Of a DNA stretch of 64,000 bases, positions 11,280-17,200 are shown one piece after another (position 1 is the stretch's first letter; the number at the start of each line of letters is the position of its first letter). The position numbers were made by a program. The DNA comes from Escherichia coli (GTDB lineage: Bacteria > Pseudomonadota > Gammaproteobacteria > Enterobacterales > Enterobacteriaceae): NCBI RefSeq assembly GCF_029227855.1, contig NZ_CP074357.1. One strand, 5' to 3'.

Positions 11280-14200
11280 TAAAAACCGGAAATAACGCCA
11301 GAAATGGTGGAAAAAATAGCCTAAATAGGCTGATTCGATGTGTTTGCGGGAAAAAAATCGGCCCAGATCCGCGAAATTTTAATCAGCGAGTCAGCTTGGG
11401 AAGAAATGACCTGCTTATTCGCACCTTCCCTTTTACTTTCGAAATCTGTTCTAATTGCCCAGTAATACTTGCAACATCAAGAGTAGTACCACCAAGATCA
11501 ATTACCAAACTTGATTCAAATGAAGCAATATCCTCAATTTCATCTGCCCGGGTCACAGCTGGTAAAGATTCAGGGAAAACAGTCACAGACAAAACGTTGA
11601 AAGAATAGCGTTTACCGTCAAGATAACGCTCAACTGGTTTCATCAGGTTATCTTTTTTTCTCTGAATATTTTCAATATTCGTTTCCCCTAAAGCAGTATA
11701 GAACTGGCTAAGAGGTAAAGTAACAAAGAGGTGAACATCCTGAGGAACTAAACCAGAAGCATGAAGTGCATGGTGAACATTTAACCGGCTAATTTCATCG
11801 TATTGGTGAGATACATCAGTCGATTCCAGTGAGTTACTAGATTCGCTGTGATGCGAAAACCTTTCCAGCCCATCAATAAGATAGTTAAAAGGATTGAGAC
11901 CCTCATGGCGAACACGGAAATCTGGAACAAAACTATTTTGTGTGAGCAAGGGAACTAATTCGTTTCTTTCATTAAGACAAACCAGTTTTGCAGCTTTACT
12001 TCCATCATCGACAACGATTTTTAAAGCTTCAGTGATATCCTGCAATGATTGTGAAACAGGACTTTCAGATTTTAATAGTTCAGCCATAAAAACTCTCTTT
12101 TATTAATAGGACCATATTAGATATTAACTTTATACATTAATGGTGACCTATTATCAACATCAACACTATTAAAAAAATACGTAACTCTATGTTATTTCAG
12201 CATCCTTCCATTTTAAATACATTACCGTTAAATATCCTGTATTCATGAAGTAAACATGTTTATAAAGGAGCCAATTATAATCAGAAAGTTACTTTGCATC
12301 CTAAGTATGAACTGTTTGAGAGCCAGGACTGGAGCCTTTACCAGTAAGTAACAAAGGTCCTTAGGCTTAGAATCCAAAATGACGCCTTTATGTAAAAAAA
12401 TCATAGCTCGAAATACCGTATCATCGATGTAAACATACGTAGAGGAATTTATGGCAGCTGAGCACGTCCAAACTATAGACCTTACAAACTTCTCGGGAAG
12501 GATTTTCTTTCTGGCAGATCCTCATGGACATTACTCTGCGCTGTGCAACTTGATTCAATCAGTTACAAAGCCAGAAGAAGAGATAGTAATTTTCTCTACT
12601 GGAAATTTGTTTGACTATGGGCCGGAACCCATAGAGTTGATGAAGGCGATAAACAGTGGCTTTTTCGATGGACGTTTTGTGAGGCATTTCTCAGCTGCCG
12701 GAGCCGGAGAAGAAATGTTAAAAAAATTGTTACCATTAAACAAAGACCGGAGAACATTTTACCCCAGCACATACCTCAATGAGAGATGGTGTGTAATGGG
12801 CGGAAAGTGGCATAAAGCTGTAAATCGTTACTATTTAGAGGAAGAGGTAAAAAAACTTCTTAATACCCAGCTTGGTACGATGATGCAGATTTTACTCAAA
12901 GGCGATATAAAAATTGGGGTTTGCCCTTCTGATTACGCCCCTATCCGCACATCATTCACTGATACTTATAATGCGCTTCAAGCATTCAACTATGCCAATG
13001 TGAATATTTTTCAGAGCCAGTTTCTATTCGGTATGGACCATGCCGTAATACCAATGATGATAAATGACGTCAACCTTATGGTCCTAGGTAGGAATCCTGT
13101 AAACAGCATTCGAAAAGCCCATGGTCGTACTCAAAACAATCTTCCAGTACTGATCGGTAATTGTTTACATATAAATACTGGATCACTCTATATGTCAAAA
13201 TTAGAAGACCAGGTAATAGTTGCTCCGGGTATACCGCCAACTGACTCACCAGCACTTACATTAGTAGAAATAATCATGAAGAACAATCCAGTTTTATTGT
13301 GTCATCAGCTAATACAAACAACAAACAAGTTTTATTCACTTAAAACCTATCCTTTAGAACTCGATTCGATTGAAAACAACATTGAGGTAACAAGATGAAG
13401 ATAAAATGGAAGATTATCTCAATTTCAACATTACTTTTGCATCTTCACGCAGCAGCTGCACCACATCAAGAGAAAGAGCAAAGAAAAGATGCTTTTTCTT
13501 CTGCCGCTCAGAAAAGTGATTCACTTATATCTGCTAAAGCGGAGCTTATAAACGGAAGGTGGTTTATAAATGGTAAATATAGGCCTGTTCTAAAGACCAG
13601 CATGACCAAAACCAATTTCTTAGAAATCATGAATGTTTCAAATAAAGAATCACTTTTTATGGTGATACCGAAACTTGAGTATAATATCATTGCCAAAAAT
13701 AAAATCTTACTAAATGAAAAAATTGCATTAAGCGAAGGCACATCCGGAAAAAGCATTGTTTGGGTCGAGCCTAAATCAAGTATAACTATATCGTTTATAA
13801 ATGACCTTGCTAATACGCCCCTTCAGGCTATCGTTTCGATCACAAGAAACAACAAAGATGTAATTGCCATCTTTGGACCGGATCAGGATAAAGGGTTTAC
13901 TCTTCCCGGAAAGACATCTAATGATCAAGTGTCCGTTCCTGACGATTCTGATCTAAATATAAAAAAACTTAACATACCTCAAAGTGTTGGTAATTCAGTA
14001 ACCATCAATCCTAAAGAGAAGAATTACCTCTTAGTTGGACAAGTAAAATATAAAATCTTATCTCTTCCGAAATATCAACATTTAGAATTTTCTGAACCGG
14101 TTTATATTGAGAAAAGAAAAGATATCCTCGGTGGTTATGGTTATTGGACGAAAGAAACAATTCTCTACCCCGGTGAATCATTATCTTTTATAACCAGCGC

Positions 14201-17200
14201 CAAAAACAATCTAAGGAAGCGGGATGATTAAAGTTATCACACTTTTATTGTTTGCATTACTGACTGGTTGTCAGTCAGTAGAAAGTAAAATCGAAGAACT
14301 CCCGACAGTTGGTTTTGACCCTATTCTATACAATAAAAGTGAGGCCTTTACTGACGGAAAAGTTACTTTACGTGTCGAAAGTTCAGGAACTGATGTTTGG
14401 CTTGTCGCCAAGAATGGAACCAGAAGTTTTATTGAGCTTTCAGGCCTAACGCTAGGTGGTAGTCGTTGTGCTTACAATGCCCGTAGTAAGCAACTTTTGC
14501 CCCCAGGCAGCGTAAGCACATTCGTAGTTCCTACGGTTGGAATGCTTGGACTTTGCTTCAACAATGAAGATCAACTTATGTTTATTAACCGTGCTTTTAG
14601 CAGAATCTCTCCCAAAGCAAAAGGAAAAGATTCTCTTTCTCTTTTATTTTCTGTTAGTTACGATTTTCCCGGAAAAGCGGACCTAATTAATAACCACGAT
14701 TTTCAAGAGTTATATCTTTTATTTTTGAATGAGGATAATCTATGAAAAAAACATTAATTGTTATTTTATTATGTTTTTGTCACTCAGTTTTAGCATATCC
14801 ATACCGTATCTATACTGTCCCGGAAGGGGCATTAGTAAAAAACATACTAACTAATGAATATCTAGGAAAAACCCCTGTGGTTGTGGACGTGAGCAATACC
14901 GAAGCTGGTTCTACTTTTGGGATTTCTTTATTTAGACATGAAAATGTTGCTATAAAGATTTTTACAGTAATGCCTTCAGCAGAAAATAATTTTGCTGTTT
15001 CTGGACCTGACGTTGCAACTATGTCATTGCCGGGCAAAGCACCTTTAAACGTAGTAAATGATGGGAATGGCGCTTCTGTTCATATAGAACTAAGACCTTA
15101 TATGTCTGAACCTGCGCACACCCCATATTAATATAACAAGAAATTAAAAATATAAATCATATGAACTGCATCATAAAGATGCAGTTCAATATTTATTCTG
15201 ATACTTTTAATTTTTCTTTTATGAACTCCTCTAGCTCCTTAATAAAACCCGCACTTATCCTATTGAATTCAATGCGAATTTTTCTTCCAGTATTGTTTTT
15301 ACTGATTCTTGCATACTTATCTTTGTTATCAAAAGTAATAAGATCACTTGTTTCCCATTTTGTGGAATAAGATTTTTCACAAACACTTTCCACAGCTTGT
15401 GTGATTTTCTCCATTACAACTTTTTGGGCAACTTGGAGATCTCCAATGTCTAAATCTTTTGTTTCCTCTTTAACATTATCTATTACTTCATCTAAAGGAA
15501 ATAGATTTTTTTGCACATATTTCTGTAAACGAGACAAGCGACTATAATAGGAGTTCGGTATTCCTTCATAATCCGGGAATAAAGAGATCAATGTTTCGTC
15601 AATACGGGCCGCCTGGATTCTTTTGGCTACCGATACATGACTAATCCCAAGATATGCTGCGAGTTCTTCATTAGTAGAAAATCCCTTTTCTTCCATTTTC
15701 TTGATAAATTGAAACCCAACTTCTCTATATGAAAATTTTCGAGATGTTTGTGCTGCGGATATAATTGAATTTATATCATCTTCGGTTAGTTCATCCGGTA
15801 GTACCCACAGGGGGAGATCCTTTTCTGCCTTTATACAGCAGAAACGTCTGCGACTTCCTTCTATTAATAAATAAACCCCATCTCTTTTTACAGCGATCCC
15901 TTCGGTATCGACCCCTCTTTCTTCAATCTGCTTAAGAATATCTCTAACAGAATAATCTGTAAGGGCTTCTTGATTTCGTGGGTTTGCTGGATGGACTAAG
16001 GTCTCCTTCTCCACTCTCTGGGCTGGAACAATCACATGTTCCGCTTCAAGTCTTCGGCCCTTATGAAGAGTGAATAACTTTTTTATGCGAGGTGCTGTTT
16101 TCAAACCCGCAAGACCTGAACGGTGACCGACTTCTGTCCGCTTTGGTGCGTTTAAATATCGAGATTTATCATTCCCGATATGTTGCTCATCGCTCATGCG
16201 TTAACTCCTTGCTTAGCTGAAAAACTTTTTATTTCATTTATAAATTGTTGATATACCTGTAATACAGATTCTTCTGCGACATCAAGTTGCTTTGCGGAAC
16301 AAAGTTCCTCTGATTTTTTGATATCAAGCACTGTACGCCCTTTGGAAGCAGCTGCCTTAAATGCTTCAGAATTTTTTATGTTAGCGGACATCAAAAGGTC
16401 CTGAACAGTTCTGATTAATTTATCCAAAACTATTCTTTCATATGGACTTTTGTCATCAACATTGACAGCAAGAACTTTGAACCATTTTAAATTATCGCCC
16501 TTACTTGGTGATTGTTTAAACCTTTCACTTATTGTAAGCATGAAGTCTGTAGTAGAGGCGTAATCATATTCACGTGGTGACACTGCGACAAGAATCCCAT
16601 CGGCCGCTTCGTCAGCAGCCCAGATCAAAGGTGAATCTTCAGGTGGAGTGTCTATAATAATCAAATCATAGTTCTGCTTCAGTACCGGTAAGATAACTTC
16701 CTTGAAACGTAGTAACAAAGACGTTCGTTCTTCTCTAGAACATTGCCAGTATTTATCTTTAAAACGAGCATCTGTCGGAAATGCCGTTATCACGTCCAAG
16801 TTTGGCAGATGCGTTGAAAAAGGCATATTAGTGATGATTTCTTCTTCAGAGAATCCTGAATCTAAATATTTTTTATACTCAGAATTTTCTTCATAAATTC
16901 CAAGGATTGCATCAATTGCTGTAAGGAAGACATCATCTTCTGAGACACTTTGAATCATGCTGCTTCCAATCGAACCTTGTGGGTCCCATTCGATCATTAA
17001 TACACGTGCATTCAGTTGTAGATCTAAAGCAGCTGCTACTGCTAAAGCTACAGATGTAGTGCTTTTCCCTGTACCGCCTTTATGATTCTGAGTAACAATA
17101 GCTCTGCTAAAGTAATGATCGCGGTACTTGGGATAACCCAGGGCATCCATTATTTTTTGAACATCCCAGCGGGTGTAAAGATGATTTTTGTTTTGATAAA

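Follow-up and report, generated by a model that had tools for sequence, protein, structure and literature searches.

A probable Tra2 Z operon of an IncHI2 plasmid encodes a putative pseudo-phosphatase and three predicted exported proteins

Results

Four overlapping genes in the transfer region of an IncHI2 plasmid

We analysed a stretch of 64,000 nucleotides of Escherichia coli DNA (RefSeq assembly GCF_029227855.1, contig NZ_CP074357.1), referred to here as the window, and concentrated on four genes at positions 12451-15131. This region is very probably the Tra2 Z operon (trhO, eexB, orf017, trhZ) of an IncHI2 plasmid, that is, the IncHI entry-exclusion system. The genes are named after their orthologues in the IncHI1 reference plasmid R27 and are listed with their percentage identity to the R27 products (BLASTP, essentially full length):

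12451-13398, plus strand: trhO (R27 R0015 orthologue), 315 amino acids, from the list of open reading frames (ORFs); cytoplasmic lambda-phosphatase fold with a degenerate active site; 72%
13395-14231, plus strand: eexB (R27 R0016 orthologue), 278 amino acids; exported exclusion protein, the fastest-evolving of the four; 44%
14224-14745, plus strand: orf017 (R27 R0017 orthologue), 173 amino acids; lipoprotein with predicted outer-membrane anchoring; 62%
14742-15131, plus strand: trhZ (R27 R0018 orthologue), 129 amino acids; small exported protein, predicted beta-sandwich; 78%

The four cistrons are translationally coupled. A preliminary description of this DNA, made from the sequence alone, had proposed such a unit, and its ORF coordinates proved exact. 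The genes overlap by 4, 8 and 4 nucleotides, with ATGA at the trhO/eexB junction, ATGATTAA at eexB/orf017 and ATGA at orf017/trhZ, and a Shine-Dalgarno sequence (GAGG or AAGGA) lies 5-9 nucleotides ahead of each start codon. The overlapping stop and start codons, together with a single terminator after the fourth gene, are consistent with co-transcription. RefSeq, annotated with PGAP, names the first product 'metallophosphoesterase' and each of the other three 'hypothetical protein'.

The replicon is an IncHI2 plasmid. The four-gene block and its flanks are 100% identical to those of IncHI2A/MOBH/MPF_F plasmids such as pR18.0877_278k, and a DNA search of PLSDB with the block and flanks returned 1,126 records, 1,125 of them at an identity of at least 95%, from Escherichia, Salmonella, Enterobacter, Klebsiella and other hosts. 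The arrangement is not due to chance: 1,126 plasmid records keep the DNA block, and homologues of all four genes occur in 8 independent lineages. The reference plasmids R478 (IncHI2) and R27 carry the corresponding four-gene set between parM and parB, and the proteins flanking the cassette in the window are of the ParM, ParB and ParA types. The cassette is placed within Tra2 between the htdA...trhN (AN) and trhA...trhC (AC) operons, a placement that we also found in 8 further lineages. A table of R27 genes (supplement, PMC7366339) assigns R0015 (trhO, 'phosphodiesterase'), R0016 (eexB), R0017 ('lipoprotein (Z)') and R0018 (trhZ) to the Z operon and lists R0014 as ParM-like, R0019 as parB and R0020 as parA.

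Exclusion in R27 is brought about by EexA and EexB (Gunton et al. 2008, Plasmid 59:86, as cited in a passage of PMC11493245). According to PMC11493245 and PMC8923210, donor and recipient alike need the two proteins, and EexB, located in the outer membrane, is believed to function in surface exclusion. A review summarising Lawley et al. 2003 states that trhO and trhZ raise the transfer frequency and that their disruption lowers it (PMC11628540). The system has already been described and was characterised experimentally in R27; the window carries a common IncHI2 allele of it. The gene eexA is probably R0018/trhZ; the abstract of the 2008 study by Gunton and colleagues reportedly names the operon '015, eexB, 017, eexA', and R478 proteins were reportedly also tested for exclusion. 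No paper naming both 'eexA' and 'trhZ' was found in the searchable literature.

TrhO is related to lambda phosphatase and has lost catalytic residues

The preliminary description had read the first protein as a degenerate homologue of the phosphoprotein phosphatase (PPP) family, with the motifs ADPHGHY and GNLFDYG and no clear GNHE. Profile searches agree that TrhO is related to the metallophosphoesterases. Residues 17-118 match Pfam Metallophos (PF00149; E = 6.3e-5), and the best NCBIfam matches are PrpA/PrpB-type models, although these score far under the cut-off (23.6 bits vs 332). A profile of the TrhO family (12 members) aligned with lambda phosphatase (lambda-PP) in hhalign with 94% probability (E = 1.3e-7), the 198 aligned columns spanning residues 7-208 of the 221 in lambda-PP, and matched PDB entry 1g5b with an E value of 2.8e-4. 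Both quoted motifs are present, at residues 22-28 and 51-57, and GAGE (residues 84-87) stands at the place of GNHE. The aligned blocks are as follows:

GDLHG in lambda-PP, ADPHG in TrhO
GDLVDRG in lambda-PP, GNLFDYG in TrhO
GNHE in lambda-PP, GAGE in TrhO
W..NGG.W in lambda-PP, W..MGG.W in TrhO
CHADY in lambda-PP, CPSDY in TrhO
GHTP in lambda-PP, GRNP in TrhO
IDTG in lambda-PP, INTG in TrhO

We scored nine catalytic positions (lambda-PP D20, H22, D49, D52, R53, N75, H76, H139 and H186) on an alignment of 15 sequences. All 9 TrhO-type proteins retain only two or three of the nine positions, the window protein three, whereas the 5 nearest ordinary PPPs from an exhaustive search each retain nine out of nine. 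The metal-binding substitutions pointed out in the preliminary description are thus a property of the family. Relative to lambda-PP, six positions are replaced in the window protein (D49N, R53Y, N75A, H76G, H139P and H186R). In motif I (GDxHG), Asp and His, which bind metal 1, are kept in the window protein and in R27; elsewhere His is replaced by Tyr, Cys, Gln or Arg, and Asp by Asn in two members. In motif II (GDxxDRG), 9/9 TrhO-type proteins have Asn for the bridging Asp, and Tyr, Asn or Trp stands in place of the phosphate-binding Arg. Motif III (GNHE) has lost its Asn ligand in 9/9 and its general-acid His in 8/9. The distal His ligands of metal 2 are Pro159 and Arg214 in the window protein, His186 being lost in 9/9 and His139 in 7/9 TrhO-type proteins.

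The TrhO family is small, with 14 clusters at 90% identity and 27 representatives, several of them fragments, among 1.84 billion proteins, and its invariant residues cluster at the former motif positions. The nonsynonymous divergence (dN) of trhO between IncHI2 and R27 is 0.21, with saturated synonymous divergence (dS). Sequence comparison thus indicates that trhO is under purifying selection; this conclusion is qualitative only, as the NG86 dN/dS is undefined for most pairs because of synonymous saturation. We also considered that trhO might be a decaying pseudogene and rejected this idea, the ORF being intact and conserved in ~1,970 plasmids with a low dN. Sequence prediction found neither a signal peptide nor a hydrophobic or transmembrane segment in TrhO, which is therefore expected to be cytoplasmic.

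Single substitutions at the scored catalytic positions cut the activity of lambda-PP and other PPPs by orders of magnitude. Judged from its residues, TrhO is almost certainly not a normal PPP phosphatase and would be better described as a pseudo-phosphatase; most likely, it is unable to hold a dinuclear metal centre and works through binding, not hydrolysis. Of the two options left by the preliminary description, a pseudo-phosphatase or a divergent enzyme, the counts of catalytic positions and the purifying selection favour the first. The second would have TrhO act as a divergent metallophosphoesterase or phosphodiesterase with a non-canonical metal site, whose catalysis, with a phosphoprotein or nucleotide signal as a possible substrate, promotes transfer. 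Both existing annotations ('metallophosphoesterase' by PGAP, 'phosphodiesterase' in the R27 table) point this way, TrhO keeps Asp23, Asp55 and, in IncHI1 and IncHI2, His25, and the former-pocket residues N52, E87, H121, K122 and R214, unchanged throughout the close family, might in principle form another kind of site. We nevertheless consider an active enzyme improbable. Every member has Asn at the position of the bridging Asp49, whilst Asn75, the general acid His76, His139 and His186 have become Ala/Phe/Ser, Gly, Pro/Ser/Ala and Arg, respectively, and His22 drifts (Tyr, Cys). As the nearest homologues with ordinary architecture keep all nine positions, the losses are specific to, and define, the TrhO clade.

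The three exported proteins

As proposed in the preliminary description, the remaining genes encode a protein with a signal peptide, a lipoprotein and a small exported protein. The same description found no recognisable domains in them. Searches with NCBIfam, Pfam and PDB sequences indeed returned only noise for the three proteins (FusF, Cu-oxidase with an E value of 0.16, TssR, the MltD lipid motif and FlgP) and no match to TraT or TraS; the statement has to be softened for TrhZ, which gave a faint PEGA (PF08308)/transthyretin-like profile signal, a weak match. No further hydrophobic segment was predicted from the sequence of any of the four proteins.

EexB has an N-terminal signal-type sequence in all homologues and differs from its neighbours in its rate of change. 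Between IncHI2 and R27, EexB is 44% identical, compared with 89% for ParA, 80% for ParM, 78% for TrhZ, 72% for ParB and TrhO and 62% for Orf017, and its dN of 0.46-0.71 makes it the fastest-evolving member of the cassette (dS saturated). This divergence would fit a surface specificity determinant under diversifying pressure, and because EexB evolves far faster than its neighbours we regard it as the likeliest surface specificity element. An AlphaFold2 model built with 8 sequences contains two beta domains (pLDDT 67, pTM 0.65; the other four models 48-60) and hints that EexB might be a copper-less tandem cupredoxin-like protein. In a Pfam scan of 8 homologues, the Cu-oxidase profile reached an E value of 0.16 in one member and gave no match in the others, and hhalign of EexB against E. 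coli FtsP returned a probability of 0.75%. EexB has no invariant His or Cys, the residues that would make up the copper ligands (His-x-His motifs and a type-1 Cys), and the mature window protein has no Cys at all.

Orf017 has the lipobox LLTGC, with the lipid-bearing Cys16 invariant in 8/8 homologues. The residue following this Cys is Gln, Ala, Asn or Ser and never Asp in the 8 homologues; therefore, by the E. coli sorting rule, Orf017 is predicted to be an outer-membrane lipoprotein. Two more cysteines, C82 and C111, are also invariant in 8/8 homologues and probably form a disulfide, which would fit a periplasmic site. TrhZ has a signal peptide with an A-x-A-type cleavage site in 8/8 homologues, and its structural model and faint profile signal suggest that TrhZ/EexA may be a small beta-sandwich.

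Conservation of the cassette with the mating-pair-formation genes

The four genes co-occur in ~1,970 plasmids and are inseparable from the H-type mating-pair-formation genes. Among 72,556 sequenced plasmids, tblastn found TrhO in 1,973 records and TrhZ/EexA in 1,974, with near-identical counts per genus (TrhO/TrhZ: Klebsiella 618/616, Escherichia 512/513, Salmonella 421/421, Enterobacter 287/287). The matches fall into identity bands corresponding to IncHI2 (~1,120 records), IncHI1 (~285) and a Klebsiella IncHI1B/IncFIB type (~570), the last being ~30% (TrhO) and ~44% (TrhZ) identical to the window proteins.

We then looked at nine related loci (L004-L007, L008, L010-L012 and L015) on contigs with TrhO homologues 62% down to 23% identical to the window protein. 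In every related contig, the TrhO homologue is followed by three genes of matching size, and phmmer confirmed the homology of all three, EexB being the weakest. Two of the loci deviate in detail. In the metagenome contig with the 62% identical TrhO (L008), the site of eexB (6001-6840) holds a 131-amino-acid ORF after a gap of ~440 bp and the other three genes are intact; it looks as if the eexB homologue is disrupted or the assembly faulty. In L011, an opposite-strand gene of the YdjM family (11462-11962) is inserted between the orf017 and trhZ homologues and therefore breaks the translational coupling of the third and fourth genes, which is otherwise universal.

The preliminary description had placed the operon between parB and parM, transcribed divergently from parM. 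The location is correct, but it is incidental to the cassette, as some relatives lack par genes. This bears on the idea that the cassette serves partition or plasmid stability, a reading prompted by its site between ParMR and ParAB in IncHI1, IncHI2 and several metagenomic relatives. The cassette adjoins parMR alone in L010 and L011, and L010, L012 and L015 lack parAB. L012 and the annotated Klebsiella plasmid pBio45 (L015) are devoid of par genes altogether, with htdA-like genes and trhC as the immediate neighbours of the cassette. In addition, the ParMR module of the window has been destroyed by an insertion sequence (IS) element with the cassette left intact, and segregation proteins would not be expected to be exported, as three of the four products are. 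A role in partition is extremely unlikely, and we rejected it on synteny. Because relatives keep the cassette without par genes nearby, we assign it to the mating machinery: it belongs to the mating-pair-formation region, next to which the partition modules arrived later.

Flanking features and regulation

The cassette is bordered by the following features:

11383-12087, minus strand: parM, divergent from trhO
12088-12450, no strand assigned: parM-trhO spacer of 363 bp, ~33% GC, with inferred divergent promoters including the Z-operon promoter
15162-15188, no strand assigned: bidirectional intrinsic-terminator-like hairpin with an 11-bp stem and T-rich tails on both strands
15193-16197, minus strand: parB, convergent with trhZ

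The hairpin lies 31 nucleotides past the trhZ stop codon and 5 nucleotides past the end of parB. We found no strong sigma-70 consensus in the spacer 12088-12450 and no Rfam match in 11300-15400. The lack of a strong sigma-70 consensus fits the published dependence of the Z operon on TrhR and TrhY (PMC7366339). Both regulators are needed to activate the Z operon and are counteracted by HtdA (Gibert et al. 2020, PMC7366339), and in an R27 htdA mutant at 25 °C the four Z genes were up 8-17-fold together (supplement, PMC7366339).

The spacer contains blocks, such as TTTATAC..TAATG...CAACA and CGTAA.T..TGTTA...GAATC..TC, that are conserved across five lineages (R27 and three other lineages were aligned) in which synonymous sites are otherwise saturated, and it also carries several imperfect inverted repeats. 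Going by their sequence, these blocks and repeats are candidate binding sites for ParR (parC) and/or TrhR/TrhY.

Two further observations concern the partition modules. At 10250-12087, an IS5-family element (ISKpn26-type transposase ORF at 10302-11282; GC ~56% vs ~38% around it) replaces the 3' third of parM and the whole parR-like gene, leaving a ParM of 234 amino acids; R478 has a ParM of 345 amino acids and a parR-like gene encoding 212 amino acids. The ParMR module is therefore inactivated in the lineage of the window plasmid, with ParAB and the Z operon intact, and several other IncHI2 plasmids share the junction between the IS element and parM. The space between parA and trhC is occupied by a 3.5-kb tandem array (17827-21325) of 14.2 copies of a 249-bp unit (73% matches, GC ~50%), and no ORF of at least 90 amino acids is present in 17448-21812. 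A comparable gap of 3-4 kb, likewise unannotated, is found at this position in both R27 and R478. The array, which lies just upstream of parA, could be the centromere of ParAB or an incompatibility region.

Discussion

A working model of the Z operon

Taken as the IncHI entry-exclusion system, the Z operon could work as follows. A single mRNA would provide fixed proportions of a periplasmic and outer-membrane set made up of EexB, the Orf017 lipoprotein and EexA, which would be attached to, or lie beside, the H-type type IV secretion apparatus. In a donor cell, this set would aid productive mating. In a recipient that already carries the plasmid, the resident set would be recognised homotypically by the copies of the incoming donor, and mating-pair stabilisation and/or DNA entry would be aborted, with EexB as the likeliest specificity element at the surface. 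TrhO, its remodelled pocket kept, would serve as a cytoplasmic, non-enzymatic adaptor or regulator that promotes transfer through binding.

Several points weigh against this model. We infer both the homotypic recognition step and the non-catalytic role of TrhO. The EexB model is of moderate confidence only, and no sequence profile supports a relationship to cupredoxins. EexA of R27 is reportedly a cytoplasmic-membrane protein, and the sequence of TrhZ predicts a periplasmic or peripherally attached protein rather than this location. The exclusion data come from R27, an IncHI1 plasmid, and the window carries an IncHI2 allele. Finally, one microarray study (PMC7366339) saw no temperature response of the Z operon, unlike other tra operons; the coupling to the transfer machinery is therefore incomplete.

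Alternatively, the cassette could primarily serve the donor's H-type mating apparatus as an accessory to its structure or assembly (pilus or mating-pair stabilisation), and exclusion would be a secondary by-product of the presence of these proteins in the envelope of the recipient. It always lies between two mating-pair-formation operons and never apart from them, transfer reportedly drops when trhO or trhZ is disrupted, the donor too needs EexA and EexB, and the four genes are co-induced with tra genes in the htdA mutant. On the other side, trhO and trhZ are reportedly not among the essential mating-pair-formation genes listed in the abstract of Lawley 2003. They only modulate transfer frequency according to PMC11628540, and exclusion genes of other plasmids are also embedded in tra regions without being needed for transfer (PMC8923210). 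The Z operon also departs from the temperature regulation of the other tra operons. We consider a mainly accessory function less likely than not.

A broader claim would be that all H-type systems (IncHI1, IncHI2, IncHI1B/HI3 and related plasmids) carry an obligatory four-part module in which TrhO is an ancient, dead lambda-phosphatase fold turned binding protein and EexB, the main surface determinant, a copper-less descendant of a multicopper oxidase. We put this forward tentatively, as an idea somewhat more likely to fail than to hold. If it were true, an exclusion system would have been assembled for the most part out of two reused, inactivated enzyme folds, each recognising its like across the donor-recipient pair, and TrhO, as an adaptor or sensor, might connect the envelope exclusion proteins with the type IV secretion system on its cytoplasmic side or with the TrhR/TrhY-HtdA regulators.

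Relative to the searchable literature, our analysis adds modest refinements, namely the conserved pseudo-phosphatase status of TrhO, the conservation of the cassette into par-less Klebsiella IncHI1B-type plasmids and the fold hints for EexB and EexA. IncHI plasmids rank among the main vehicles of multidrug resistance, with mcr-1, mcr-9 and carbapenemase genes among their cargo, and recognising the Z operon matters for annotation, since RefSeq gives three hypothetical proteins and one enzyme. As TrhO is almost certainly not an enzyme, work on its promotion of transfer should turn to a binding partner instead of a substrate, and the fold hints for EexB and EexA offer starting points for structural work on donor-recipient recognition in IncHI exclusion.

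Comparison with known systems

The closest known system is the R27 Z operon, which shares with the window the gene order, the overlapping stop and start codons, the site between parM and parB, the degenerate phosphatase motifs and the protein sizes (323/279/173/130 amino acids vs 315/278/173/129 in the window). It differs in that the window carries an IncHI2 allele with a far diverged EexB (44%) and an adjoining parM truncated by an IS element.

TrhO resembles the bacteriophage lambda Ser/Thr phosphatase (NinI, PDB 1g5b) and E. coli PrpA/PrpB, aligning over nearly all 221 residues of the lambda enzyme, compared with which it has internal insertions adding ~30 residues and extends a further ~65 residues at its C terminus. 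Vps29 of the retromer and the B subunits of eukaryotic DNA polymerases alpha, delta and epsilon are non-catalytic calcineurin-like phosphoesterase folds used for protein binding. By analogy, TrhO may be another metallophosphoesterase fold kept under selection after the loss of metal ligands; we know of no specific relationship between TrhO and these proteins.

The possible resemblance of EexB to SufI/FtsP, a copper-less multicopper-oxidase homologue of the E. coli divisome, comes from a model of moderate confidence; SufI/FtsP has three domains, compared with the two modelled in EexB, and there is no detectable sequence similarity. As for exclusion itself, the F plasmid also has two independent determinants, one of them at the outer membrane, within the transfer region of an F-type mating-pair-formation system (PMC11493245): the outer-membrane lipoprotein TraT for surface exclusion and the inner-membrane protein TraS for entry exclusion. 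The IncHI factors are unrelated to them in sequence and, unlike TraT and TraS, are reported to be needed in the donor too and are co-translated with a cytoplasmic protein that appears to be a pseudo-phosphatase.

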